From Centroscyllium fabricii (lineage: Eukaryota), in assembly GCA_051313645.2 (NCBI GenBank), contig JBNRSN020000013.1, positions 92,628,001-92,692,000 of the forward strand: 64,000 bases of DNA. Reading direction: 5' to 3'. The position numbers and the translations under genes were made by a program. The notes under the pieces were generated by a model. It had not been told where the DNA came from and did not search any database. It saw nothing but the letters and a program-made list of their open reading frames with translations. How positions within the stretch are numbered: position 1 is the first letter of the stretch; each line of letters starts with the position of its first letter. Below, in pieces: positions 10,235 to 58,674 of the stretch.

Positions 10235-10404
10235 ATTAAGATACAAAGCCGTCAGGCTTGCTTTTTTCACACTCTCATTATGAATTAGTTTGGCCCTTTG
10301 TGTTTCTCGCCTTTGCCTATTGCTTCTCACCCTTCTACCATTTATTTCTGGCTGCATATGACTTCCCTCTTTTCCACTACCTAGGTTCCCATCCCCCTGC
10401 CATA

Positions 10405-11349
10405 CTAGTTTAAATCCTCCCAAACAGCTCTAGCAAATATTACCCCGAGGACATCGGTACCATTCCCGCCCAGATGCAGACCGTCCCTCTTGTACAGGTC
10501 CCACCTCCCCGAGAACTGGTTCCAATGCCTCAAGAATTTAAATGCCTCCCTCTTGCACCACTGCTCAAGTCACGTATTTAGCCTAACTATCCGGCTCTCT
10601 CTATTCTGGTTAGCACGTGGCACTGGTAGCAATCCAGAGATTACTACCTTTGAGGTCCTACTTTTCAATTTAGCTCCTAGCTCCCTAAATTCAGCTTGTA
10701 GGACCTCATCCCTCTTTTTACCTATATCGTTGGTACCCACATGTACCACGACAACTGGCTGTTCACCCTCCCTCTCCAGAATGTTCTGCAGCCGCTTCGA
10801 GACATCCTTTACCCTTGCACCAGGGAGGCAACATACCATCCTGGAGTCTCGGTGCCGGCCACAGAAACTCCTATCTATTCCCCTTACAATGGAGTCCCCT
10901 ATCACTATAGCTCTGCCACTCTTTTTCCCTCCCTTCTGTGCAGCAGAGCCAGTCATGGTGCCTTGAACTTGGCTGCTGGTGCCTTCCCCTGATAAGTCAT
11001 CTCCCACAACAGTTTCCAAAACGGTAAACTTATTTTGGAGGGAGATGACCGCAGGGTACTCCTGCACTACCTTCCTGATCTTACTCTGTCTTTTGGTCAC
11101 CCATTTACTGTCTAAGCTATCCTTTACCTGCGGTGTGACCAACTCACTGAATGTGCAATCCACAACTTTCTCGGCTTCGTGGATGCTCCACAGTGAGTCC
11201 ATCCGCAGCTCCAGTGCCGCCATGCGGTCCGTCAGGAGCTGCAGCTGGACACACTTCCTGCACACATAGTTGTCAGGGACACCGGAAGTGTCCCTGATTT
11301 CCCACATGGCACAGGAGGAGCATGGCACGGGTCTGAGCTGTCCTGTCAT
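10405..11349 (-). pseudogene. CR1 ORF1: Cys-rich N-terminus, coiled coil, SGNH/GDSL esterase; one premature TGA at 10570-10572
   Basis: CSSC...CRKC, GDSIVRG and HVGTND. The same frame continues through DGLHL to ...WEDLN-TAG at 10405-10407. Confidence 0.9.
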
Positions 11350-19678: not shown

Positions 19679-21873
19679 CTGGAAGCAAACATGTAATAAA
19701 TCTTATGTATTGTATAATCTGATGAATTATTATACAAGAATACAATTCATTAGATGATACAATTACCAACAAGTTGAACAACAGCCCTCAAATTTATCAC
19801 ATCCAATATATGAAGATTGGCCACTAAGTTGTAATGATCCAATTTTAAGCAATTGGAGCAGAGCGGACCTAGGTGGGTCCCGAGCAGCAGCAGCGAGGCG
19901 GAGCAGAGCAGACCTAGGTGGGTCCCGAGTGACCGCAGCAGCAGCAGCGAGGAGGCGGCTATAAAGAGCCGAGGCAGCGAGGCCCAGGCACAGAGGCAGC
20001 GCGGAGCGGAGCAGTAAAAGAGCCAAGGTCAGGAGCGAGCAGTTTCGCGGGCTTTTTTTTCAAAGCCAGGGGGCGGGGCCGATCCATTGGCACCTGTATA
20101 TAGGTGGAGCAGTTGCTAAACCCGAGACACTACACTAGTAATGTCTCCCACCCTTCCACCTCCTCTAACCTTTAGGGGTAGAGGGAATTTAAAAGGTAGG
20201 TTCGATTTATTTTTTGTTTTCAGGGACTGATCTTAAGTGGAAGGGGCTCCTGGACAGAGGTAGGAGTTGGCGGCGGCAGCAGGACCAGGACAGGAGTTTT
20301 TTCGCGGGTTTTATTTTCAGGAGCAGGCAGCAGGGCGGTACTAGGAGGAGACAACAGGAGGCGGCGGATATAAAGGTAAGGGGGTAAGGGATTTATTTAT
20401 TTTTTATTTTATTTATTTTTCTGAGGTCTCTCTGGTGTAAAAGGGGACTTCTGATAGCTGAGCGCCCTAGTATATAGCTTGTTTTTTGGTGGTGTTAAAC
20501 TTTTTGTAAAAGTAATTAGAGGGGTACATCATGTCAGTGGAGCTCGGTGCAGTGTTTTGCTCCTCCTGCCACATGTGGGAAGTCAGGGACACTACTGAAG
20601 TCCCTGACGACCATGTGTGCGGGAAATGCGTCCACCTTCAGTTACTGACTGACCGCATTGCGGCACTGGAACTGAGGGTGGATGGGTTATGGAGCATTCG
20701 CGATGCTGAGAGGTGCGTGGATTACTCATTTAGTGAGCTGGTCACACCGCAGGCTAAGGGTGTACAGGCAGAAGGGAAATGGGTGACCATCAGAAAGAGC
20801 AGTAAGGTCAGGCAGGTAGAGCAGGAAACCCCTGTGGCCATCCCCCTCACGAACAAGTATACCGTTTTGGATACTGTTGGGGGGGAACGATCTACCAGGG
20901 GAATGCAGCAGTAGCCAACCTCCGGGCACTGGGGTTGCTTCTGCTGTTCAGCTGGGGGGGGAAAAGGCGTGAGAGAGCAATAGTGGTAGGGGACTCTATC
21001 GTAAGGGGAGCAGATAGGCGTTTCTGTGGCCGTAGAAGTGACTCCAGGATGGTCTGTTGCCTCCCTGGTGCCAGGGTCAAGGATGTCACGGAACGGCTGC
21101 AGGGCATCCTGAAGGGGGAGGGAAACCAGTCAGAGGTCGTTGTACACATAGGAACCAACGACATAGGTAAAAAGAGGGATGAGGTCCTGCAACAAGAATT
21201 CAGGGAGCTAGGCAGAAATTTAAAGTGCAGGACCTCAAAGGTTGTAATCTCTGGATTACTCCCTGTGCCACGAGTTAGTGAGTATAGGAATAGGTGGATA
21301 GAGCAGCTTAATACGTGGATCAAGAGTTGGTGCAGGAGGGAGGGCTTTAGTTTCCTGGATAACTGGCCCTGTTTCTGGGAAAGGTGGGACTTGTATAAGC
21401 CAGACGGTCTCCACCTTAACCAGAGGGGGACCAATATCCTGGCGGGGAGGTTTGCTAGCACTGTTGGGGAGGGTTTAAACTAATTTGGCAGGGGCCTGGG
21501 ATACAGAGTGGAGCAAAAATAGGGGATGACGAAAAGGCATATATTGAGGAAAAAACAAGTATGATTGGAAGGCAGAACAAAAGTTCGACACAAGGGAGTA
21601 GGGCAAGGTTAAATGGCATTTATTTTAATGCAAGGAGTCTTGCAAACAAGGGGGATGAATTGAAGGTGTTGTTAAACACATGGGAGTATGACATTGTTGC
21701 CATTACAGAAACATGGCTGAGAGGGGGGCAGGATTGGCAGCTCAATATTCCAGGGTATAGAATCTTCAGGAGAGACAGAGTGGAGTGAAAAAGAGGAGGG
21801 GGTGTTGCAGTATTAATCAAAGAATCAATTACTGCTGTAACAAGGGATGACATATTGACTGAGTCCTCTAACG

Positions 21874-24946: not shown

Positions 24947-26911
24947 TTACTTTTTTTTAAGCTATCTTGCTATTGGAGCCATGTCATTGATTACACTGAT
25001 AAATTGATACCACTTCACTGTTTCAAACATTTACTATTCCAGATCGCTTTAAGGTGGAAAACAGTGGAAGAATTACAAGTTAAGCAACACAGTACCCAAC
25101 TGTAGCACAACATAAACAAGAAATACAGAGCTAGGAAAATAAACCAACATTGTGGGAAGTCCAGGATGCTTCTCGTGTCCTGGACAATCACGTGCAGGGA
25201 GTGTCATCAGCTGGAGGAGCTCGAGCTCCGGGTTTTGGAGCTTAAGCAGCGGCTGGTGTCACTGCGGTGCATCCGCGAGGCTGAACTTCATGGATAGCAC
25301 GTTTCAGGAGGTGGTCACCCCACAGCTTAAGAGTTTGCAGGCACAGAGGGAATGGGTGACCACCAGGCAGACAAGGAGGACCAGGCACGTAGTGCAGTTG
25401 TTCAGAGTACATCTCATTCTCTAACCGGTATTTTGTTCTGAACATTGGTGAGGGCAATGGTTCCTCTGGGCCGTACAGCCAGAGCCAAGTCCACGGCACC
25501 ATGGTTGACTCAGTTCTCCGGGGTGGTGGTGGTGGTGGTGCGGAGGCGGGGGAGAGCGGGTGGTCATAAAAGCAATAGTGATGGGAGATTCAATAGTGAG
25601 TGGTGCAGACAGGTGTTTCTATGGCCGCAGACGTGACTCCAGGATGGTATGTTGCCTCCCTGGTGCTAGGGTCAAGGATGTCATTGAGTGGCTGCAGGGC
25701 ATTCCGAGGGGAGGGTGAACAGCCAGAGGTCATGGTCCATATCGGTACCAATGACAGGTAGAAAAGAGGGATGAGGTCCTGCAGGTAGATTTTAAGGAGC
25801 TAGGAAAGAGAGTAATAAGCAGGACCTCAAAGGTAGTAATCTCTGGATGACTCCCAGTTCTATGAGCTAATGAGTACAGAAATACGAAGTTAAGAGCAGA
25901 TGAATGCGTGGCTGGAGAGATGGTGCAGGAGGGAGAGCTTTAGGTTCCTGAGCCATTGGGACTGGTTCTGAGGGAGGTGAAACCTGTACAAGCTGGGCGG
26001 GTTGCACCACTACAGGGCTGGGACCAATATTCCCGCGGGGAGGTTTGCTAGTGCTGTTGGGGAGGGTTTAAACTAGCTTGGCAGGGGGATGGGAACCTGA
26101 GCTGGAAATGGAAGGCAGTAAATTAGTAAGTGAGTTTGGAAGGCAGAGGAAACAAAGGCTAGAAAATAGACAACATGGAGTTTGGCAGTGCTAAATGGTA
26201 TATACTTCAATGCAAGGAGTCTAGTAAATAAGACAGATGAGCTGAGGGTGCATAGACATGTATGATATCACAGCTATTACTGAAAGGGCAGGAATGGCAG
26301 CTTAACATCCCTGGTTACAGGGTTTTCTGATGAGATCGAGAGGGGAAATGAAAGGGGGGGGGGTTGCAATATTGGTTAAAGAAACAATTACAGCTGTGAG
26401 GTAGGTTGATACGTCAGAAGGATCATCAAATGAGGCCATATGGGTTGAACTGAAGAACAAAAAAGGGGCAATCACACTGCTGGGTACGTGCTATAGACCC
26501 CCAAATAGTCAGAGGGAGATAGATATATGTAGGCAAAATGCTGAGAAGTGCAAAACAATAGGGCAGTAATAGTAGGGATTTCAACTATTCTAATATTAAC
26601 TGGGATAGAATCAGTGTAAATGGTATAGAGGGTGCAGAATTCTTAAAATGCATTCAGGAGAACTTTTTGTTAGCAAGCCCAACAAGAGAGGAGGCAGTTA
26701 TGGACTTAGTTTTAGGGAATGAAGCTGGGCAGGTGAAAGGGGTATCAGTGGGAGAGCATTTTGGTGGCAGTGATCATAATTCAGTCAGATTTAGTGCAGT
26801 TATGGAAAAGGACAAAGACTGACCAGTAATAACATTTCTTGATTGGGGAATGACCAATTTTACTAAGCTGAGATGTGATTTCGCCGAAGTAAACTGGAAA
26901 CAGCTACTTGA

Positions 26912-30776: not shown

Positions 30777-33700
30777 GTCTGTGCAGTCGCGACCGGGAAT
30801 CCTGAAGGTTGTGCTGCCTGCCTGGTGCCAGGATAAAGGATGTCTCCTCGCAGCTGGAGAAGAACTTGGAATGGGAGGGTCCAGTTGTCATGGTCCATGT
30901 AGGAACCGACGACATGGGTAGAACTAGGAATGACATTCTGCCGAGAGTTTGAGGAGCTGGGGTCGAAGTTAAAACGCAGAACCTCACAGGTAATAATCTC
31001 TGGATTGTTAGCTGAGCCATGTGTAAATTGGCATAGGGACAAACAGATTAGAGGATTAAATGTGTGACTCGAAGAGTGGTGTGGGAGGCAGGGGTTTCAA
31101 TTCATGGGGCACTGGCACCAGTACTGCCGAAAGAGAGACCTGTTCCGTGGGGACGGGCTCCACTTAAACTGGGTTGTGACCAGTATCCTGGCGAATCGAA
31201 TAACTAGGGCAGTAATAGGGCTTTAAACTAACGAAAGGGGGTGGGGGGGGGGGGGGGGGGAGGATTCAGGAAAGGGTAAATTCAAAAGCAGTAAGAGAAA
31301 TGTCAAGGCTGTAGAGCAGAGTAGTGATCTGGGTAAAGATAAGCAGAGTGGGTCAGGAAGGGACAAAGATTAACAAAGGTAATAGGGCATTAGTGACTAA
31401 AGTGACATCAGGGAAAAGTAGAAAAAAGTTAAAAGCAAAAAAGGTACTATATGCACGAAGCATTCGCAACAAAATAGATGAATTAATAGCGCAGATAGAA
31501 ATAAATGGGTATAATTTAATAGCTGTTAGAGACGTGGTTGCAAAGTGACCAAGGTTGGGAACTGAATATTCCAGGATATTTGACTGTTAGAAGAGACAGT
31601 CAGAATGGAAATGTTGGTGGGTTAGCCCTGATAATAGAGGAGGGAATAAAGACAGTAAAGAGAAAGGATCTTGGCTTGGAAAAACAAAACAAAATGTAGA
31701 ATCAGTAGAGCTAAGAAACAACAAGAGGCAGAAAACACTAATGGGAGTGGTCTATAGGCCCCCTAACAGTGGCTGTAGTGTCAAGCAGAGTATAAATCAG
31801 GAAATTAGAGATGCATGCAACAAGGGTAATACTGTAATCATGGGGGACTTTAACTTTCAAATATACTGGGCAAACCAGATTTACAGAAATAGTGCAGAGG
31901 AAAAGTTCATGGAATACATTCAAGATAGTTTTCTAGATCAGTATACCAAGAGGGAATTGGTTACTTTAGATTTAGCACTGTGCAATGAGACAGGGTTAAT
32001 TAATAACCTTGTAGTAAAGGAGCCTCTGGGGAACAGCGATCATATGATAGAATTTTATGTTGAGTTGGAGAATTTTATGTTGAGTTGGAGAGTTTTATTT
32101 ATGTTGAGTTGGAGAGTGATTTAGTTAAGTACGAAACTAGGGTCCTAAACCTGAACAAAGCAATCTACGTAGGTATGAGACGCAAGTTGGCTAAGGTAGA
32201 TTGGGAAACTAGATTAAAAGATATGGTAGTAGAAAAGCAATGGTGAAATAATTCATAATTCGCAATGAATATATATTCCCTTAAGGAATAAAAACACCAC
32301 AGGAAAAATGGTCCAACCATGGCTAACAAGAGAAATTAAAGATAGTTTTAGATTAAAGGAAGAGGTTTATAATGTTGCCAAAAAAAAGTAAGCCTGAGGA
32401 TTGGGAGGATTTTAGAATTCAGCAAAGGAGGACCAAGAAATTGATAAAGGGAAAGTTGAATGAGAGTAAACTAGCAAGAGACATAAAAACAGACTAAAAG
32501 CTTTTATAGGTGTGTAGAAAGGAAAAGACTAGCGAAAGTAAATGTGGGTCCCTTACAGGCTGAGACAGGAGAAATTATAATGGGGAATAAGGAAATGGTA
32601 GAGAAATTAAACAAATAATTTGTCCGTCTTCAAGGAAGACAATGCAAAATACCTCCCGGAAATAGTGGAGAACCAAGGGTCTAGCGAGAATGAGGAGGAT
32701 TTTTTTTTAGTATTGGTTAAAAAAAAAAGTACTGGAGAAATTAATGGAACTGAAAGCTGATAAATCCCCAGGACCCGATGGCCTACATCCTAGGATTTTA
32801 AAAGAGGTGGCTATAGAGATAATGGATGCATTGGTTGTCATCTTCCAAAATTACATAGATTTCTAGAACGGTTCCCACGGATTGGAAGGTAGCAAATGTA
32901 ACCCCACTATTTAAGAAAGGAGGGAGAGAGAAAACAGGGAACTATAGACCAGTTAATCTGACATCAGTAGTAGGGAAAATGCTAGAATCTATTATTATGG
33001 TTGTGGTAACAGGGTACTTAGAAAATAATAATAGGATTGGGCAGAGTCAACATGGTTTTATGAAAGGGAAATGTTTCACAAATCTGTTGGAGTTTTTTGA
33101 CATAACGAGCAGAATAGATGAGGGAGAACCAGTGGATGTGGTGTATTTAGATTTTCAGAAGGCATTCGATAAGGAGCCACACAACAGGTTATTAAACAAA
33201 ATTAGGGCTCATGGGATTGTGGATAATATACTGACAGGGATTGAGGATTGGTTAACGGACAGAAATCAGAGAGTAGGAATAAACAGGTCATTTTCGGGTT
33301 GGCAGGCTGTAACTAGTGGGGTACCACAAGGATCAGTGTTTGGGCCTCAGCTATTGACAATCTACATCATTGATTTAGATGAGGGGACCAGATGTAATGT
33401 ATCCAAATTTAATGATGATACAAAGCTAGGTTGGCATGTAAGTTGAGGAGGAGGATACAAAGAGGCTTCAAGGGGATATATATATAGGCTAAGTGAGTGG
33501 GCAAGAACATGGCAAATGGAATATAATGTGGAGAAATGTGAAGTTATTGACTTTGGTAGGAAAAATAGAAGGGCAGAGTATTTTTTTAAATGGAGAGGGA
33601 TTGGGAAATGTCAGTGTTCAGAGGGACCTGGGTGTCCTTGTACACAAATCACTGAAAGTTAACGTGCAGGTACAGCAAACAATTAGGAAAGAAAATGGTG

Positions 33701-34337: not shown

Positions 34338-37300
34338 ACCTTCAGTTACTGACTGACCGCATTGCGGCACTGGAACTGAGGGTGGATGGGTTATGGAGCA
34401 TTCGCGATGCTGAGAGGTGTGTGGATTACTCATACAGTGAGCTGGTCACACCGCAGGCTAAGGGTGTGCAGGCAGAAGGGAAACGGGTGACCATCAGAAA
34501 GAACAGTAAGGCCAGGCAGGTAGAGCAGGAAACCCCTGTGGCCATCCCCCTCACGAACAAGTATACCGCTTTGGATACTGTTGGGGGGGGGGGAACGACC
34601 TACCAGGGGAAAGCAGCAGTGGCCAACCTCCGGGCACTGAGGTTGCTTCTGCTGTTCAGCTGGGGGGGAAAAGGCATGAGAGAGCAATAGTGGTAGGGGA
34701 CTCTATCGTAAGGGGAGCAGATAGGCGTTTCTGTGGCCGTAGACGTGACTCCAGGATGGTCTGTTGCCTCCCTGGTGCCAGGGTCAAGTATGTCACGGAA
34801 CGGCTGCAGGACATCCTGAAAAGGGAGGGAAACCAGCCAGAGGTCGTTGTACACATAGGAATCAACGACACACGTAAAAAGAGGGATGAGGTCCTGCAAC
34901 AAGAATTCAGGGAGCTAGGCAGAAAGTTAAAGTGCAGGACCTCAAAGGTTGTAATCTCTGGATTACTCCCTGTGCCACGATTTAGTGAGTATAGGAATAG
35001 AAGGATAGAGCAGCTTAATACGTGGCTCAAGAGTTGCTGCAGGAGGGAGGGCTTTAGTTTCCTGGATAACTGGCCCTGTTTCTGGGAAAGGTGGGACTTG
35101 TATGGGGACGACGGTCTCCACCTTAACCGGAGGGGGACCAATATCCTGGCGGGGAGGTTTGCTAGCATGGTTGGGGAGGGTTTAAACTAACTTGGCAGGG
35201 GGTTGGGATAGGTAGTGGAAAAGAGGGAGGTCATAGGAAGCCAGAAACAAATGGTAGGAAGGTGAGAAACAATAAGCAAGGGAGAGAAACACAAAGGGCC
35301 AAACAAATTCATAATAGTGTGATCAAAACAAGCCTAAAGGCTTTGTATCTTAATGCAAGAAGCATTAGGAACAAGGTGGATGAACTAGCTGTGGAAATAG
35401 AGGTAAGCAAATATGAGTTGATTGGAATTACGGAAACATGGCTGCAGGGGGGGCAAGGCTGGGAACTCAACATCCCGGGGTATACAACATTCAGAAAGGA
35501 TCGGCACAAAAGAAAGGGAGATGGGGTGGCATTGCTGGTGAAAGAGGGGATAAATGCAATTGAAAAGAAGGATATTAACTCAGATGATACGGAATCTATA
35601 TGGGTAGAACTAAGAAACAGTAAAGGGCGGAAAACATTAGTGGGAGTTATATACAGGCCTCCAAATAGTAATATGGAGGTGGGGGACGGCATAAAAAGGG
35701 AAATTAGAGAAGCTTGCGATAAGGGCACAGCTGTCATCATGGGCGACTTTAATCTACATATTGATTGGACTAGCCAAGTTAGTAAAAATAGTGAGGAGGA
35801 GGAATTCCTAGAATGTCTACGGGATGGGTATCTGGACCAATATGTCGAGGAACCAACTCGGGATCAGGCCATCTTAGACTGGGTATTGTGCAATGAGAAG
35901 GGACTAATTAACAATCTCGTTGTACGAGGCCCCTTGGGTCGGAGCGATCATAATATGATCGAATTCTCAGTTGAGATGGAAAGTGAAAAGATCAACTCAG
36001 AGACTAAGGTCCTGAATTTAAATAAAGGGAATTATGACGGTATGAGAAGGGAATTAAGCAAGATAGATTGGGCAGTGTTCCTGGGGGGATTGAATGTGGA
36101 TAGACAATGGCAAGCATTCAAGTATAGGATGGAAGAAATACAGAACTCGTTCATACCGGTTTGGCATAAGAATAAACCTAGAAAGGTGACTCAACCGTGG
36201 ATAACAAGGGAAATAAGGGACAACATTAAATCCAAAAAATGGGCATATCAATTGGCCAAAAAAAGTACTAGGCCGGAAGATTGGGAGCAGTTCAGGATAC
36301 AGCAAAGGAAGACAAAGGGATTAATCAGGAGGGGGAAGATAGATTATGAATGTAAGCTTGCGGCAAACATAAAAACTGACTGCAAAAGCTTTTATAGGTA
36401 CATCAAGAGGAAAAGATTGGTAAAATCCCAAGTCGGTCCCTTGCAGTCCGATTCAGGGGAATATATAATGGGGAATAAAGAAATGGCAGACCAACTAAAT
36501 TCATATTTTGGTACTGTCTTCACAAAGGAGGACACAAGCAACCTCCCAGGGATAGCAGCGAATATAGGGTCCAAGGCAAGGGAGGAGCTGGCAGATATCA
36601 TTATTTCTAGGGAGATGGTTTTGGGGAAGTTGAAGGGATTGAAGGCCGACAAATCCCCAGGGCCTGATAATCTACATCCTAGGGTACTTAAAGAGGTAGC
36701 CCCGGAAATAGAGGGTGCATTAAGGATCATTTTCCAGAACTCAATAGACTCTGGATCAGTACCCACGGATTGGAGGGTGGCTAATGTTACCCCACTATTT
36801 AAAAAGGGGGGCAGAGAGAAAGCAGGGAATTATAGACCAGTAAGCCTTACATCAGTAGTGGGCAAAATGCTCGAGTCCATCATCAAGGATGTAATCTCGG
36901 AGCATTTGACAAGTAGGGATGAGATCGGACAGAGTCAACACGGGTTTACAAAAGGTAAATCATGTTTAACTAATCTATTGGAATTCTTTGAGGAAGTAAC
37001 TCGGAAAATAGATGGCGGAGAGCCAGTAGATGTGGTGTACCTTGACTTCCAGAAAGCTTTCGATAAGGTTCCACATAAAAGATTAGCATGTAAAATTAAG
37101 GCTCATGGGATTGGGGGCAAAGTTTTGATGTGGATAGAGAACTGGTTGGCAGACAGAAAACAGAGAGTTGGAATTAACGGCTCGTTTTCTGAGTGGCAGT
37201 CGGTGACTAGTGGAGTACCGCAGGGGTCTGTCCTGGGACCTCAGCTGTTTACAATATATATTAATGATCTGGATCAGGGAATTGAATGTAATATCTCCAA

Positions 37301-38234
37301 ATTCGCGGACGACACCAAACTAGGAGGGGGGGCAGGCTCTGAAGAGGGTGTCAGGAAGTTACAGGGCGATTTGGATAAGTTGGGGGACTGGGCAGATAGA
37401 TGGCAGATGCACTATAATGTGGATAAATGTGAGGTTATCCACTTTGGGGGCAAAAACAGGAGGGCAGATTACTACTTAAATGGCAATAGATTGGGAGATG
37501 GGGAGGTGCAGAGAGACCTGGGTGTTCTTGTACACCAGTCGCTGAAGGCGAGCACGCAGGTGCAGCAGGCGGTTGGGAAGGCAAATGGTATGTTGGCCTT
37601 CATATCAAGAGGGTTCGAGTATCGGAATAAGGATACCTTACTGCAGCTGTACAAGGCACTGGTGAGACCACACCTCGAGTATTGTGTACAGTTCTGGTCG
37701 CCTCGCCTGAGGAAGGATGTTCTTGCCATGGAAGGAGTGCAGCGGCGTTTCACCAGGCTGATTCCTGGAATGGCAGGAATGACCTACGAGGAGAGATTGT
37801 GTAGTCTGGGCTTGTACTCGTTGGAGTTTAGAAGATTGAGAGGCGATCTCATTGAGACGTATAAAATTCTGAAAGGTCTGGACAGGCTAGATTCAGAGAG
37901 AATGTTTCCAATGGCGGGGGAGTCCAGAACCAGGGGCCACAGTCTAAGGATAAGGGGTAAACCATTTAGGACAGACATGAGGAAGAATTTCTTCACTCAG
38001 AGAGTGGTGGGCCTGTGGAATTCCCTGCCACAGAGGGCGGTGGAGGCCAGTTCATTAAACATATTCAAGAGGGAATTGGATATATTTCTTCAAGCTAAAG
38101 GGATTAAAGGTTATGGAGAAAAGGCGGGGACGGGGTACTAGCTTGCTAAAGATCAGCCATGATCTCATTGAATGGCGGAGCAGGCTCGAAGGGCTGAATG
38201 GCCTACTCCTGCTCCTATCTTCTATGATTCTATG
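34338..38234 (+). mobile_element. Young, 5'-truncated CR1 LINE (E3) with intact ORF2
   Basis: ORF1 remnant to 35190, ORF2 to 38141, tail TTCTATGATTCTATG. TGGTA occurs at both junctions (34333-34337, 38233-38237). Confidence 0.95.
35181..38141 (+). CDS. CR1 ORF2: intact APE endonuclease + reverse transcriptase; frame open from the ORF1 stop region
   Basis: 959-aa track ORF from GTG at 35262. The frame is open from at least TTT AAA at 35181. LYLNARS, ITETW, GDFN, SDH and FADD are present. Confidence 0.95.
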   Translation, partial: FKLTWQGVGIGSGKEGGHRKPETNGRKVRNNKQGRETQRAKQIHNSVIKTSLKALYLNARSIRNKVDELAVEIEVSKYELIGITETWLQGGQGWELNIPGYTTFRKDRHKRKGDGVALLVKEGINAIEKKDINSDDTESIWVELRNSKGRKTLVGVIYRPPNSNMEVGDGIKREIREACDKGTAVIMGDFNLHIDWTSQVSKNSEEEEFLECLRDGYLDQYVEEPTRDQAILDWVLCNEKGLINNLVVRGPLGRSDHNMIEFSVEMESEKINSETKVLNLNKGNYDGMRRELSKIDWAVFLGGLNVDRQWQAFKYRMEEIQNSFIPVWHKNKPRKVTQPWITREIRDNIKSKKWAYQLAKKSTRPEDWEQFRIQQRKTKGLIRRGKIDYECKLAANIKTDCKSFYRYIKRKRLVKSQVGPLQSDSGEYIMGNKEMADQLNSYFGTVFTKEDTSNLPGIAANIGSKAREELADIIISREMVLGKLKGLKADKSPGPDNLHPRVLKEVAPEIEGALRIIFQNSIDSGSVPTDWRVANVTPLFKKGGREKAGNYRPVSLTSVVGKMLESIIKDVISEHLTSRDEIGQSQHGFTKGKSCLTNLLEFFEEVTRKIDGGEPVDVVYLDFQKAFDKVPHKRLACKIKAHGIGGKVLMWIENWLADRKQRVGINGSFSEWQSVTSGVPQGSVLGPQLFTIYINDLDQGIECNISKFADDTKLGGGAGSEEGVRKLQGDLDKLGDWADRWQMHYNVDKCEVIHFGGKNRRADYYLNGNRLGDGEVQRDLGVLVHQSLKASTQVQQAVGKANGMLAFISRGFEYRNKDTLLQLYKALVRPHLEYCVQFWSPRLRKDVLAMEGVQRRFTRLIPGMAGMTYEERLCSLGLYSLEFRRLRGDLIETYKILKGLDRLDSERMFPMAGESRTRGHSLRIRGKPFRTDMRKNFFTQRVVGLWNSLPQRAVEASSLNIFKRELDIFLQAKGIKGYGEKAGTGY

Positions 38235-40738: not shown

Positions 40739-41463
<725 letters not shown>

Positions 41464-51773: not shown

Positions 51774-52712
51774 CAGAATTGAGCAAGCTGGCGGCGCGCA
51801 TAGACGCAGCAGCTTTGCGTCTCCCGAATTTGTAGTGTCCCTGGTTCCCGCACTGTTCCTGGAGAGGACGGCGGGGTCGGTGGAGTAGAGCACCGGTGCT
51901 CCTCAATCAGGGCACCGGTGTTGACGCACCAAGCCGTCGTGGTCGTCGGAGCGCTGAGAGCTGCGAGGCCGTCGAGGGCCGGGAGCTGTGGGGCCGTTGG
52001 GCGCTGAGAGGCCCGGGAGCTGTGGGGCCGTCGGGCGCTGAGAGCTGCGAGGCCCGGGAGCGGAGAGCTGCGAGGCCCGGGAGCTGTGGGGCCGTCGGGG
52101 GCCGGGAGCTGCGAGGCCCGGGAGCTGTGGGGCCATCGGGGGCCGGGAGCTGCGAGGGCCGGGAGCTGTGGGGCCGTCGGGCGCGGAGAGCTGCGAGGCC
52201 CGGGAGCTGTGGGGCCGTCGGGGGCCGGGAGCTGCGAGGCCCGGGAGCTGTGGGGCCTGGGAGGCCCGGGAGCTGTGGGGCCGGGAGCCCCAGGACCGTC
52301 GGGGGCCGGGAGCTGCGAGGCCCGGGAGCTGTGGGGCCGTCGGGCGTTGAGAGCTGCGAGGCCCGGGAGCTGTGGGGCCGTCGGGGGCCGGGAGCTGCGA
52401 GGCCCGGGAGCTGTGGGGCCGTCGGGCGCTGAGAGGGCCGGGAGCTGCGAGGCCCGGGAGCTGCGAGGCCGTCGGGCGCGGAGACCTGCGAGGCCCGGGA
52501 GCTGCGAGGCCGTCGAGGGCCGGGAGCTGTGGGGCCGTCGTGGCCGGAGCGCCAGGGCGCATCGTGGCTGCAGCGCCGGGTGGTCCTGGTGGGATGGAAT
52601 GGATCAGACTGGGACTAAAGGACATTTTAATAATTTGGGAGATTGCATGTTTGCATTTCGTTGTTTTGTGTATGTTCACTTTACAATGACAATAAATTGA
52701 ATCTTATCTTAT
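51774..52712 (+). mobile_element. Non-coding retroposed insert with GC-rich minisatellite and Rex-like tail
   Basis: TAG duplicated at 51771-51773 and 52713-52715. Tail CAATGACAATAAATTGAATCTTATCTTAT. Repeats of GGCCCGGGAGCTG(CGA/TGG) at about 51950-52545. Confidence 0.75.
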
Positions 52713-55175
52713 TAGTGTCTCAGGTATTCCATGACGCGCGAACATTGATTTGAGATGAACTGTAACATCAGTGGACTTAGTGAAGGTGAGGTTTGCTATC
52801 TCAACATACCTCGAGTAATAGTCCACCACCAGCAGGTAGGTTTTTCCTTTAAGTGCAAACAAATCCGCACCTAACTTCTGCCAGGGTCTGTCAGGAAGTT
52901 CTGTCTGGATGAGCGGCTCTGCGTGGTTTGTACGTTCCCTGATACAGGTTCTACAGCTTAGCACTAGCTCGTTTAGCTGCTGGCTCAGGCCAGGCCACCA
53001 CACACTCTGTCGCGCCCGCTCCCTACATTTCACGACGCCCTGATGTCCTTCATGTAGCTTATCGAGGACATCATTGCTTAGGGGTGAAGGAATGACCAGC
53101 CTTGTGCCCTTCAGTAGAAGACCGTCCTGTACGGTTAGGAAGGCGCGCTCCGTCCAGTACAATTTTGAAGTTCCCTCACATGCGTTGTACTCAGGCCATC
53201 CATCCCGACACATCCGCATGACGGTAGAGCACACGTTGTCCGTTTTCAGGTGCTCTCTCAGGTTGTCCAGGTAGGAAACGCTCGCTGGGAGGTTCTCCAT
53301 GATGCTGTCCACATAGATGTTTGTGCTCTCCATGAGCTCTGTGTCTGTGTCTGTGTCTACTGCGTTGTTCTCCATCGGTGCTCGTGACAGCGTGTCTGCG
53401 GTCCACAAGCTTTTTCCAGGAACATGAGATATTATGTAAGAATACCTCATCAGTCTCATTCTGAAACGCTGGATCCTGGGGGGTAAGGCGTCCAAAGTTT
53501 GGGCCCCCAGGAGACTTAGCAGAGGTTTATGATCCGTCTCTAACTCAAAGTGTTGGCCTATCAGAAAGTCTCTGAACCTTTCACAGGCCCATGTCAGTGC
53601 CAGCGCCTCTTTTTCTATCTGTGCGTATCTCTGCTCGACTGGTGAGAGAGATCTGGAAGCGTAGGCGACAGGCCTCCATTCCTCGCCCCATTTCTGTAGC
53701 AGGACCGGTCCCAGTCCGAAACTGGACGCATCTGCTGACACCTTACTCTCTTTGTTGGGATCATACAGAGCTAGCACAGGTGTGCTCGACAGCTCCTCCT
53801 TCAGGCTGTTGAAGGCTTTGACCTGGTCGACTCCCCAGAGCCAGTGATTTTTCTTAGACAGCAAGTCTCTGAGTGGTTTATCCTTTTCTGCTAGCTGAGG
53901 GATAAACTTTCCTAACTGATTCACCATCCCCAGAAAGCTGCGTAGCTCACTTACATTGGTGGGCTCCTGCATCTCTCTTACTGCTGCTGTTTTAGTCGCG
54001 TCTGACTTTACTCCCTCATCTGTAATTATGTGACCCAGGAATTTATCTTCCCTTACTGAGAACTCACATTTCTCCAGGTTGAGAGTTATTCCTGCCTTCT
54101 CTATCTTCCTCAACACTGCATGAAGACGAGAGTCATGTTCTGTCTGCGTGTGCCCCCATATTAGTACATCATCCATATGGCAAACGACGCCCTCTAAGCC
54201 CTCAGTGATCTCTGTGACCATTCTATTCTGGAAGTGCTCGGGTGCTGATGCAATCCCAAAGGGTAACGTATTAAAGTAATACCTCCCGAATGGTGTAAAA
54301 AAGGTCGTCAGTTTAGCTGATTCTTCGGCTAGCGGTATTTGCCAGAAGCCCATGTTAGCGTCTAGCTTGCTAAAGATCTGAGCATCAGCTAGTGAGCCTA
54401 GAGTCTGCTCTACCGAAGGCAGTATATACTTCTCCCTACACACTGACTTGTTTAGCATTGTGAGATCGACACATATGCGAGGCTCTCCTGACTTTTTTGC
54501 TACTACTACCATGCCGGAGCACCATTCAGTGGGCTCCTCTACCCGGCTGATAACTCCTATCCTTTCCATGCGCTCAAGTTCTTTTTTCACCTTTGGCATC
54601 AGTGGAAGAGGTATCCGTCGCGGTGTCTTCATGGAGAATGGCTCCGCCCCAGGTTTCAGCTTGATGGTGTATGGCTGCTGTGTAAGGCCAAGACCGCTGC
54701 ACAGCTTTGGATAACTGTTTTTCAGTGTGTCCAGGTCGATGGTGTTGAGTCGTGCCACCAGCTCCAGCTTGGTGATGGCGGGTCTGCCTAGTAACGCTGT
54801 GTGCAGGTTTCTTATCACATACACGTCCTCTTGTATCTGCTGTCCTCCTTTCTGTAGCGTGATGTTTGAGACTCCCAGGACATCCAGTGGAGTGCATCCT
54901 GGTCCCAGTATCGGCCTTTTTGCTTGTTGAAGTTTTGGAATGTCACCTTTGAATACAGTATTAAACACATAGTCAGGGATAACAGTCACATCTGCGCCAG
55001 TGTCTATTTTAAATTGGACCTTTCTGTCTTTGATCTTCAGGTTCACCATCCAAGGATCTCCGCCTGCTGCCACTGTGCCCAGGAATAAGCTGCTGTCCTC
55101 CTCCTCTTCTTGTACCTCGTGCACAACTTTGGAGGATGCACACATGCTTATAGTGGCCTTTCTTGCCACACGCAT
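52704..55175 (-). pseudogene. Gypsy pol (PR-RT-RH-IN); integrase interrupted, remainder at about 51084-51773
   Basis: FKIDTGAD, LPFG, HMDDVL, ADAS, TDHKPL, HEGH...CRTC, VVDYYSRY. Continues LVTDNGPQF beyond the insert. Confidence 0.93.
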
Positions 55176-55865
55176 GACACATTACATCATTAGCAGGGCA
55201 CTCCGTTTTTGAATGGGAGGGACTGTTTCCACATTTGAAGCATGATTTTGACTGTGTACGTTTTGTTTGGCTTGTTAAACTTCTTATTTCTATAAAATTG
55301 TTTGCCTTTACCCACGACACAGAGCATGTCTCCTTAGTATTTTTTCCCCGCAGGTTGCACTGTTGCTGTCTCACTGCTTCCGTCTGTCTGGCCATTGCCA
55401 TCGCTTTTTCTAGTGTGAGGTCTTTATCCAGCTGCATTCTCTGTGACAGGCACACGTCTGCTAGCCTGACAACTAACCTGTCCCTAATCAGTTCATTGTG
55501 CAAAGCTCCGTAGTTAGTGTTCAGCCAAGGTATACAATGCGGTCACAAAAGAATCGATTGTTTCACCTGTTCCTTGCTTCCTCATATTAAAACGTGCTCT
55601 TTCATAAATCACGTTCTTCTTCAACACAAAGAATGCCAGAAATCCATCTCTTACTGCGTCATACTGTAGTTGCTGAGCGTCGGATAGATTCAGTCCTTTC
55701 AGAACGTCATCCGCTTCGTCTCCCATACAGTACATAAGAGTGTTCACTTGGTTCGCCTGTGTGGTTGTATGGAGTTTACTGGCCTGACGAAAGCGCTCAA
55801 ACCTCCGTATCCACTTTTCCCATTCTTGGGGTTTGGTGAAGTCAAACGGCTCCGGTGGCTGGAAG

Positions 55866-58674
55866 CTATCACGGAGATGTGGCTGAAGGAGGGGCAGGAA
55901 TGGCAGCTAAATATTCCGGGGTATAGAATTTTCAGGCGGGACAGAGACGAGGGAAAAAGGGGAGGGGGGGGTAGCGATACTGATTAAGGATTCAATCACA
56001 GCCATCAGGCGGGTCGACCTAATGGATGATTCCTCAAACGAGGCACTATGGGTGGAGGTAAAAAATAAAAACGGGGGGGGGGGGGGGGGGCACCTTACTG
56101 GGAGTATATTATAGACCACCAAACAGTAAAGGGGAGATGGAGGGTAAGATATGTGAGCAAATCACGAAGATAAGCGAAAATAACAAAGTAATAATATTAG
56201 GGGACTTTAATTTCCCCAACATCAACTGGGATTGTCAGAGTGTGAGGGGCACGGAAGGTTCAGCATTCTTAAAATGCAGCCAAGAGAGTTTTTTGAAGCA
56301 ATATGTTGGGTCACCTACAAGGGGGGGGGGGGCGGTACTAGACCTAATACTTGGGAACGAGGACGGGCAGATAGAGGAGGTAACAGTGGGGGAGCACTTC
56401 GGGGATAGCGACCACAATTCAGTTAGTTTCAAGATTGTAATGGAGAAGGATAAAAATGGACCAGGGGTAAAAGTACTAAACTGGGGGAAGGCGGATTTCA
56501 TTAAAATTAGGCGCGATGTAGCCGCAGTAGATTGGGGCCATCTTCTCAGAGGAAGATCTGCATCAGAGCAGTGGGAGGCCTTCAGAGGGAAGGTCGGGAA
56601 GATACAGGAGGAACATGTTCCTGCAAAAATCAAGGGCGGGGGAGGTAAACAAAGGGAACCTTGGATGTCTAGGGATATATGTAAATTAATGAAGAAAAAA
56701 AGGGGGGCCTTCAATGAATATAAACGGCTAAAAACTGAGGAGGTGCTAGGGGAGTATAAGAAGTATAGGGGGGAATTAAAGAAGGAGATAAGAAAAGCCA
56801 AGAGGGGTCACGAGATTGCAATGGCCGGCAAAATCAAGGATAACCCTAAGGCATTTTACAGTTATATAAAAAACAAAAGGATCACGAGGGAAAGAGTGGG
56901 GCCCATTAAGGACGATAGCGGAAAGTTGTGCGTCGAGCCCGAGGCGGTGGGGGAGGTACTAAACGAATTTTTCTCTTCAGTATTCACAAGAGAGAGGGAC
57001 GGAACCGACATTGTAATCGGACAGAGTGTAGGGGGGGTAATTGAGGATATTACCATTACAAGGGAAGAAGTACTAGAAATCTTGGGAAGCTTAAAGGTAG
57101 ACAAATCACCAGGGCCGGACGCGATGTTCCCCAGGCTGCTGTTCGAGGCCAGGGAAGAGCTTGCGGGCCCCCCGTCTCAAATTTTCAGGTCCTCTCTCGC
57201 GTCAGGGGATGTACCCGAGGACTGGAGAACGGCTAATGTAGTACCCCTGTTTAAAAAGGGTAGTAGGGACAAACCGGGTAACTATAGGCCAATCAGTCTT
57301 ACATCTGTAGTGGGGAAAGTAATGGAAAAAATTCTGAGGGACAAAATCAGTCTGCATTTGGAAAAGCAGGGTCTGATAAGGGATAGTCAACATGGCTTCG
57401 TCAAAGGTAAGTCGTGCCTAACTAATCTGTTGGAATTCTTTGAAGAGGTAACAAAGAGGGTGGATGAAGGGAGTACTGTTGACGTGGTGTATATGGACTT
57501 CAGCAAGGCTTTTGATAAAGTCCCACATAGGAGACTAATAACAAAGGTTAAAGCACATGGGATACAGGGCAACTTGGCACAGTGGATTCAAAATTGGCTG
57601 GGGGATAGGAGACAAAGGGTAATGGTAGAGGGCTGCTTCTGTGACTGGAAACCAGTAACCAGCGGTGTCCCCCAAGGATCGGTTTTGGGACCCTTACTGT
57701 TTCTAGTATACATCAATGATTTGTACATGGGAGTAGGGGGTACGATCAGCAAATTTGCTGATGATACGAAAATTGGAAGGGTGGTAAATAACGATGAAGA
57801 TAGTAAAAGGCTCCAGGAAGATATAAATGTAATGGTTAGTTGGGCAGAAAAATGGCAAATGGAGTTCAACCCAGAGAAATGCGAGGTCATACAATTCGGC
57901 AGACCAAATGGGGTAAGGGAATATACCATGAACAAAAAAACGTTAGGTAGGACCGAGGAACAGAGGGACCTTGGGGTACAGGTGCACAGCTCCCTGAAGG
58001 TTGCTGGACACGTAAACAAGGTGGTTAAAAAGGCATACGGAATTCTGGCCTTTATTAACCAGGGCATAGTATACAAAAGTAGGGAGGTAATGTTAAACTT
58101 GTATAACACGCTGGTGAGACCTCAGCTGGAGTACTGTGTGCAGTTCTGGTCACCGCACTTCAGGAAGGATGTGGTTGCCCTGGAGAGGGTGCAGAGAAGG
58201 TTTACCAGGATGATACCTGGTCTGGGGGACCTATGCTACGAGGAAAGGCTGGACAGGCTGGGGTTGTTTGCCTTGGAGAAGAGAAGATTGAGGGGTGACA
58301 TGATTGAGGTGTACAGGATCATGAGAGGACACGATAGGGTGGATAAAGGGGCATTGTTTCCCTTGGTGGGAGAGTCAAGTACTAGGGGACATAGATTCAA
58401 GATTAGGGGGGGGAGGTAAGGAGAAATTTCTTTACTCAGAGGGTGGTGGAAGTGTGGAACTCCCTGCCTGTAAGGGTGGTGGAGGCAGAAACCATCGCAA
58501 CATTTAAAAAATATTTGGACCAGCACATGAAGGACCGTAACATACAGGGTTATGGGCCAGGTGCGGGCAAATGGGGTTAGTATAGTGAGGAGTTTCCTGG
58601 GCCGGTGCGGACTGGATGGGCCGAATGGCCTTTATCCGCACTGTAAAGTTTCTATGATTCTATGATTCTATGAT
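55866..58674 (+). mobile_element. 5'-truncated CR1 LINE (ORF2 only; 760-aa open stretch 56137-58419)
   Basis: ITEMWL, GDFN, SDH, YMDFSKAFD, FADD; tail of TTCTATGA repeats. Confidence 0.94.

Follow-up and report, generated by a model that had tools for sequence, protein, structure and literature searches.

A frozen U_UUA_AAC heptamer at the ORF1/ORF2 junction of CR1 retrotransposons as a probable site of −1 ribosomal frameshifting

Coronaviruses and retroviruses express a polymerase open reading frame (ORF) lying in the −1 frame as a fusion product, by −1 programmed ribosomal frameshifting (PRF); the heptamer of the infectious bronchitis virus (IBV) site, U_UUA_AAC, is among the most shift-prone on mammalian ribosomes (PMC5009743). 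The identical heptamer was found, in the identical register, at the junction of ORF1 and ORF2 of CR1 long interspersed nuclear elements (LINEs) within a stretch of 64,000 nucleotides of Centroscyllium fabricii (assembly GCA_051313645.2, contig JBNRSN020000013.1, positions 92,628,001 to 92,692,000 of the forward strand), which is referred to as the window. Unlike in the viral signals, the ORF1 stop codon of CR1 abuts the heptamer, neither a pseudoknot nor a stem is present 5–9 nt downstream, and the host of the signal is a LINE without long terminal repeats (LTRs). Sequence comparison indicates that ORF2 of the esterase-type CR1 LINEs of jawed vertebrates is very probably made as an ORF1–ORF2 fusion by programmed −1 ribosomal frameshifting at this heptamer.

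Canonical RNA stimulators of frameshifting lie 5–9 nt downstream of the slippery site, and the protein-stimulated cardiovirus signal lies at 13–14 nt (PMC7618472). [quoted passage not shown] Synthetic G-quadruplexes stimulate frameshifting; natural use was not known according to a 2016 review.

Recoding in LINEs has precedent, because TRE5-A and TRE3-A of Dictyostelium, which belong to the L1 clade, are stated to require a −1 frameshift for ORF2 (PMC5911963). Like CR1 they are non-LTR retrotransposons with an ORF2 for an APE endonuclease (EN) and a reverse transcriptase (RT) reached by −1 frameshift; they differ in clade and host and in having no esterase ORF1. Mammalian L1 likewise has a bicistronic LINE RNA with low output of ORF2, by unconventional reinitiation (PMC5009743); L1 has its two ORFs set apart by a spacer and is not believed to produce a fusion, whereas the CR1 frames overlap at the slippery site. 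CR1-group elements dominate most vertebrate genomes (PMC13343379), and the published canonical vertebrate CR1 elements have the same esterase ORF1 and an APE + RT ORF2 (PMC13343379, PMC4120745, PMC3905857). By similarity in ORF1, EN motifs and tail, the elements of the window are assigned to the canonical vertebrate CR1 LINEs of this esterase ORF1 type.

The route by which the CR1 ORF2 protein (ORF2p) is produced is not addressed in the literature searched. In its accessible text, a 2026 survey of the vertebrate CR1 group describes two-ORF ORF1(+) and one-ORF ORF1(−) forms only and no ORF1–ORF2 fused form, and does not contain "frameshift", "slip" or "fused" (PMC13343379); the same portion of a review on LINE ORF1 (PMC4120745) has no "frameshift", that of a frameshifting review (PMC5009743) has no "CR1", and those of PMC3905857, PMC3708506 and PMC11303007 hold nothing on the CR1 ORF1/ORF2 junction. 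Full-text searches returned no report of a CR1 frameshift; older CR1 papers, Repbase entries or supplements may mention an overlap.

Heptamer, reading frame and start codons

An earlier note, made from the sequence of the window, had described NNT TTA AAC plus a stop codon at every CR1 ORF1 end, a −1 frame open into the EN motif, and ORF2 start codons that are missing or not shared. These descriptions were borne out. All five ORF1 ends (copies E1 to E5) have this form, with the heptamer as the final seven bases of ORF1; the −1 frame, beginning TTT AAA CTA, runs without a stop into LNA(RS) in E1, E2 and E3; no in-frame ATG is present in E3 upstream of position 35673, which lies past the NARS and ETW motifs; the linker Mets of E1 and E2 stand at differing positions; and TGGCAGGGG follows downstream of the heptamer in four copies (E1–E4).

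In the whole genome (7.2 Gb), about 93,500 candidate ORF1 C-termini were counted at a first look. ORF1 ends were located in an unselected 664-kb sample blind to the heptamer, the last five residues not being used; after removal of one spurious and one duplicate entry from 18 candidates, 15 of 16 junctions were exact. Blind anchoring on the His of DGxHL was applied to 183 ORF1 ends from this genome (at most 30 of these loci had come via a heptamer-containing query) and gave 143 exact junctions, 14 exact but indel-shifted, 12 with one or two mismatches, and 14 others. With junction-blind queries based on EN (four ORF2 families, 30 loci each), two young families gave 25 and 26 copies that included an ORF1 end, and the exact heptamer and stop were recovered in 25 of each; junctions were more decayed in the two old families.

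Of the 35 ORF1 ends on metagenome contigs, nine were exact, one was shifted and four were mismatched; the remaining 21 were presumably for the most part L2-like, insect-like or bacterial, together with three decayed bird-like copies. This heptamer, with its stop and with the −1 frame open beyond it, also occurred in several bird-like contigs and in one that is sturgeon-like, at 96% identity to a protein of Acipenser. Sharks and rays provided the nearest named ORF1 homologs. An LN C-terminus after the DGLHL motif was found in 46 of 93 homologous ORF1 proteins, the named ones coming from sharks, rays, turtles, frogs, a lizard, a sturgeon and a mormyrid. No relative was found in the viral contigs searched, and the prokaryotic genomes searched gave only bacterial hydrolases at 21–27% identity.

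For codon comparison, 168 indel-free copies were grouped into 31 clusters; 27 of these had an exact representative, the four exceptions being single decayed bird-like copies. Twenty non-redundant lineage representatives were used, 11 from this genome and 9 sturgeon- or bird-like (8 bird-like). NNT, TTA and AAC were each fixed in 20 of 20. On the same tree, near-invariant residues 9–26 positions upstream of the junction served as controls and used two to six codons (Asp-26, GAC in 9 and GAT in 9; Gly-25, four codons; Leu-22, six; Gly-18, three; Leu-14, four; Ala-9, four). Among the 46 LN-ending homologs, residue −3 was never K, E, Q, M or W (0/46), that is, residues whose codons cannot end in T; residue −4 was K, E, Q or M in 25 of them. 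Synonymous-site conservation across CR1 junctions was above the local background, as judged from the 20 representatives and the 46 homolog proteins. None of the contrary findings at sequence level that the earlier note had listed was encountered; a lineage-wide synonymous variant of the heptamer, one of these, was seen in none of the unfused lineages. To judge from these codons, the constraint at the junction acts on nucleotides.

Of the 143 copies whose EN motif could be read, 124 had EN at an offset of −1. Modal linkers measured 105–255 nt, were multiples of three, and were in frame in every young family. At modal length they were stop-free in the −1 frame in 20/21, 26/26, 23/24, 8/10, 3/4 and 9/9 copies and almost never in the 0 or +1 frame; in the E3 family the −1 linker was open in 26 of 26 modal-length copies and the 0 and +1 frames never. 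Modules have been swapped at or near the junction: E2 and E3 are 95% identical in ORF1 and 50% in the linker, E1 and E3 83% in the linker and 70% in ORF1, and three or more distinct linkers are found behind a single ORF1 end (window positions 10414, 21474 and 35181; L003/L004).

Several families have an ORF2 without a usable AUG. In the E2 family, whose ORF2 has about 985 residues, 7 of 8 open copies have their first in-frame Met at residue 266–281; in the E3 family it is residue 169 in 5 of 5 copies examined whole, and in both cases this lies past NARS (57–70) and ETW (84–97); in a third family a Met common to 2 of 5 copies sits between NARS and ETW, and the sturgeon-like linker has no Met. 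No start codon is present near the stop in the 11 shark representatives (fifth −1 codon TGG, GGC, AGT or AGA) or in the sturgeon-like one. These data bear on termination–reinitiation as proposed for L1, by which ribosomes would restart on a nearby AUG or non-AUG codon of the −1 frame to give free ORF2p, the conserved bases being a cis signal. L1 ORF2 is thought to initiate in an unusual, AUG-independent manner (PMC5009743); an ATG forms the fifth −1 codon, 2 nt past the stop, in 5 of 9 non-shark (5 of 8 bird-like) representatives, and linker Mets occur in some shark families, those of three older groups of this genome and of the fused lineage described below being examples. Reinitiation may operate in bird-like CR1s and in some families with linker Mets; as the explanation of the junction it is nevertheless considered improbable: neither an AUG nor a shared near-cognate codon is available in four shark families or in the sturgeon-like element, the exact X_XXY_YYZ form of the frozen bases is left unexplained, and a lineage in which fusion had removed the stop kept amplifying with EN and RT under selection.

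A lineage with joined frames

The strongest evidence, itself new, is that lineage, in which a base was gained inside the heptamer. Blind anchoring exposed copies reading GCT TTA AAT CTA ATT AGT GGG, one base longer and without a stop. Exact counts over the genome with shared flanks gave 2,756 unfused copies, 181 one-base-longer copies (extra A, C or G) and 842 copies with AAT-CTA (L-N-L), reversed-pattern controls giving 0; among the matches listed for the one-base-longer form (100 of the 181) the extra base was A (L-K-L) in all. Among the fused copies sampled, 60 of 70 and 7 of 10 had EN in frame with ORF1; of the older unfused ones, 11 of 20 had it at −1. Copies L445 and L448 are open throughout, L448 encoding an esterase–EN–RT protein of 1,314 residues.

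When the junction was excluded from tree building (56 of 100 rows used, truncated or interrupted rows being dropped), the fused copies formed one clade (support 1.0) with L-N-L nested within L-K-L (0.86), and terminal branches shortened from 0.033 (unfused) to 0.011 (L-K-L) and 0.008 (L-N-L). With CpG excluded, nonsynonymous/synonymous changes in EN + RT were 31/35 for those shared by at least three of 69 L-N-L copies vs 390/148 for private ones (p=5e-5); therefore the fused source elements kept needing their own ORF2. Purifying selection on the linker of fused copies was looked for and not detected. L-N-L is the exact product predicted from tandem slippage of tRNA-Leu and tRNA-Asn. The heptamer of the fused lineage still has the form X_XXY_YYZ, and a −1 slip on it would meet a stop two codons on. 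Retention of this −1 stop (F-K-S-N-stop, 70/70) was discarded as evidence, the search pattern having contained that stop.

Gly7 is invariably GGG in the 20 unfused representatives and is GTG in a fused subfamily (190 copies). Among the matches listed (100 of the 190), 91 GTG copies were fused and 9 unfused, corresponding by extrapolation to about 20% of fused vs about 0.6% of unfused copies. The spread of GTG in the fused subfamily therefore indicates that the G-tract became free to change when shifting had ceased to be necessary.

It is very doubtful that the junction is conserved for another reason, namely a need of the protein for C-terminal Leu-Asn or Gly7, or a role as a hub of ORF1/ORF2 recombination or template switching, with ORF2 made by another route. 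The succession of the +A (L-K-L) form by one that restores Asn would suit the former, and the module swaps at or near the junction the latter. A protein need, however, cannot fix synonymous positions or limit residue −3 to NNT codons, Gly7 became Val in a fused subfamily, and the esterase of PDB 4C1B and L2-like esterase elements have no LN end; recombination uses homology and does not require a fixed −1 open frame.

Fusion at the level of RNA, whether by splicing or by transcription that slips in the A/T run and so gains one base, also appears highly unlikely. One-base insertions do occur, in the founder of the fused lineage and in WQG-type families, where they were confined to 47 copies, mostly +A, across many linker types; fusions thus appear now and then and seldom spread. 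For a polymerase to slip, three T and three A make short runs, and the invariant 5′ T serves tRNA re-pairing and not the addition of A. No conserved polypyrimidine tract or AG is present, AG not being conserved because the stop varies between TAA and TAG; a splice-acceptor reading of E3 (branch-like ACTAAC..CAG) was rejected, as it is not retained in TAG lineages. Among the matches listed in contigs of other organisms, whose RNA status was guessed, no indel or joint was found at the heptamer, a result that counts neither for nor against this reading.

About 12 of 30 sporadic +1 copies (L487–L516) share a KWQG-type linker and are possibly a second, small fused subfamily. A distant CR1 protein, P0120 (39% identity; a single record, at protein level only), forms one esterase–EN–RT chain with the junction Y-L-K-L-V-G-Q-G-G, which suggests the same junction far outside sharks. 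P0120 and P0071, whose ORF1 ends in N-L-N, are distant, possibly invertebrate, esterase CR1 proteins. Further candidates were set aside: longer ORF1-containing proteins (26 matches, four read) were gene-model chimeras and not clean fusions, the 1,368-codon open frame of L312 belongs to a rearranged copy whose heptamer is intact and is not a junction fusion, and the esterase–EN join of P0075 arose via a deletion or gene-model join.

The G-tract and the proposed mechanism

Downstream of the heptamer, positions +4 to +10 are variable, G occupies +11 to +14 in 20 of 20 and +15 in 18 of 20 representatives, and a second G run is common at +18 to +20. The G-tract is not an amino-acid effect, because eight different residues are found at the sixth −1 codon and the first base of the eighth is mostly G. 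Contigs of other organisms show a conserved island at about 35170–35208 between dissimilar flanks. In E5 the G run is longer than in E1–E4, with T at +14. An unstructured motif at a fixed place about 10 nt past the shift site, as in PRRSV, is thus present in all 20, and a stem-loop or pseudoknot of the canonical type 5–9 nt downstream was not found in these. The likeness to the −2/−1 PRF of PRRSV nsp2, which involves nsp1beta/PCBP, comprises a short, unstructured, homopolymer-rich motif 11 nt on and a free 10-nt spacer; the CR1 motif differs in being G-rich and not C-rich, the heptamer is another, and the trans-activator is putative (PMC4937337).

The following course of events is proposed, in which we infer slippage itself, its efficiency and the mode of action of the G-tract. 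The majority of ribosomes would halt at UAA or UAG and release the ORF1 protein (ORF1p). In a minority, tRNA-Leu and tRNA-Asn would re-pair on UUU and AAA, and these slipped ribosomes would read ...L-N-L-x-x-x-G... through a basic, low-complexity linker of 35–85 codons into EN and RT, so that the slipping fraction would set a ratio like that of gag to gag-pol. The unpaired G-tract 11 nt downstream probably stimulates slippage, the trigger being perhaps a protein that binds the G run (a host factor or ORF1p) or a contact of the G-quadruplex type; the bound protein is the first guess and the G-quadruplex the second because the geometry equals that of the PRRSV motif. In the fused lineage, free ORF1p might be supplied in trans, by cleavage, or via a slip at U_UUA_AAU into the nearby −1 stop. 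The earlier proposal of a gag-pol-like esterase–EN–RT fusion made by −1 frameshift thus draws its support from the frozen codons of the heptamer, the fixed offset, the AUGs missing from ORF2, the fixed position of the G-tract, and the fused lineage kept in frame under selection.

Several points weigh against frameshifting. The case is drawn from sequence comparison. The 20 lineages, being related by descent, do not count as independent; left out of them were four decayed bird-like copies, each single, in which the heptamer or stop is broken, and seven redundant rows, two of which (L254 and L274) have no full G-tract. The ATG near the stop in bird-like representatives and the linker Mets mentioned above count here as well. 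A canonical stimulator is missing, because neither a stable stem nor a conserved distant partner was found: folding of +6 to +75 in the 20 representatives gave no stable 3′ stem (z from −2.3 to +1.3), and duplex scans of 10 elements gave no conserved long-range pairing partner. G-quadruplex potential is uneven, the sturgeon-like copy having just two G3 runs. An obligate fusion does not account for the source of free ORF1p, which the fused family could have borrowed in trans; ORF1 of the fused copies is without a purifying signal (27/12 vs 130/59), a signal that the unfused controls lack too.

As a separate observation, a C-rich stretch about 630–670 nt upstream of the heptamer (window about 34534–34552; L094, L095 and L097) could pair weakly with the G-tract. 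A weak C-rich partner at a similar distance occurs in some shark and bird-like copies and may merely reflect proline codons.

As read here, the CR1 junction shows a recoding mechanism of known kind at work in a transposon group that is both major and ancient; the stimulator is non-canonical, and the support from evolution is unusually strong. If this is true, CR1 ORF2p is mis-annotated, the working enzyme bearing the zinc-finger/coiled-coil/esterase ORF1 at its N terminus; models of ribonucleoprotein assembly would change, assays that use AUG-started ORF2 would be incomplete, and the signal would stand as a −1 frameshift that is ancient, lies in chromosomes in very high copy number and is stimulated in a non-canonical way. 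The natural series from unfused through L-K-L and L-N-L to loss of the G-tract would provide ready-made controls. For the broader proposition we see roughly an even chance: that the RT of the LINE dominant in most vertebrates has been made as a frameshift fusion since before the split of sharks and birds, perhaps also in more distant animals, with a stimulator of a novel type, an unpaired G-tract at +11 that is recognised by a protein binding G runs or folds as a G-quadruplex, and that one shark lineage hard-wired the product, after which decay of the stimulator set in.

Anatomy of the copies and neighbouring features

The features are collated in Table 1.

Table 1. Positions of CR1 junctions and of the parts of copy E3 in the window, and loci of the single-ORF lineage.
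Feature	Position	Strand	Remarks
E1 junction	10393..10414	−	heptamer 10414–10408, TAG, G5 at +11..+15
E2 junction	21474..21494	+	heptamer 21474–21480, TAA, G4 at +11..+14
E4 junction, decayed copy	26067..26088	+	heptamer 26067–26073, TAG, G5
E5 junction, decayed copy	31222..31250	+	heptamer 31222–31228, TAA, expanded G run
E3 ORF1 C-terminal SGNH esterase domain, end ...GEGLN	34660..35187	+	Pfam Lipase_GDSL_2 (PF13472), E=3.5e-15
E3 slippery heptamer T_TTA_AAC (X_XXY_YYZ)	35181..35187	+	fixed in 20/20 lineage representatives
E3 ORF1 stop TAA abutting the heptamer	35188..35190	+	TAA or TAG in 20/20 representatives
E3 G-tract, predicted 3′ stimulator	35198..35202	+	+11..+15, past variable 10-nt spacer; second G run 35205–35207
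E3 −1-frame linker, 57 codons, no Met	35181..35351	+	from heptamer to endonuclease NARS motif
E3 ORF2 (APE endonuclease + reverse transcriptase)	35181..38141	+	open from heptamer; first in-frame ATG 35673
E3 3′ untranslated region	38142..38234	+	terminal ATTCTATG-type repeat
Single-ORF CR1 lineage, ~1,315 aa, >1,000 copies	L387–L466; e.g. L448:476–4417, G000:C2	−	esterase–EN–RT frame

Copy E3 is dead, because its ORF1 is 5′-truncated near 34340 and frameshifted at a G run near 34581–34592; its ORF2 is open for 986 codons counted from the heptamer. The ORF2 domains, APE endonuclease and RT, were matched as PF03372, PF14529 and PF00078. The ORF1 homolog profile matched the ORF1 protein of PDB 4C1B with E=2.5e-46, and SGNH-esterase ORF1 homologs are present in turtle, frog, bird and sturgeon elements. 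The terminal repeat of E3 is presumably a CR1-type tail; E3 and full-length copies end in short ATTCTRTG-type repeats without poly(A), which we take to be the usual CR1 3′ end.

In the N-terminal half of ORF1 (L277–L306, L357–L386 and L001–L030), shared changes were 46/6 vs 67/31 private ones (nonsynonymous/synonymous, p=0.009), a pattern that hints at positive selection; the loci were chosen by protein similarity, a possible bias.

On the minus strand, retrotransposon ORFs at 52707–55906 adjoin a CR1 copy at its endonuclease region, near 55906, and are apparently inserted there; we take them to be those of a Gypsy-type LTR retrotransposon, with gag-like and protease–RT–RNase H–integrase ORFs. 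The translation of 41065–41463, also on the minus strand, resembles a segment of a GSK3-type kinase, and this stretch is presumably a host exon.

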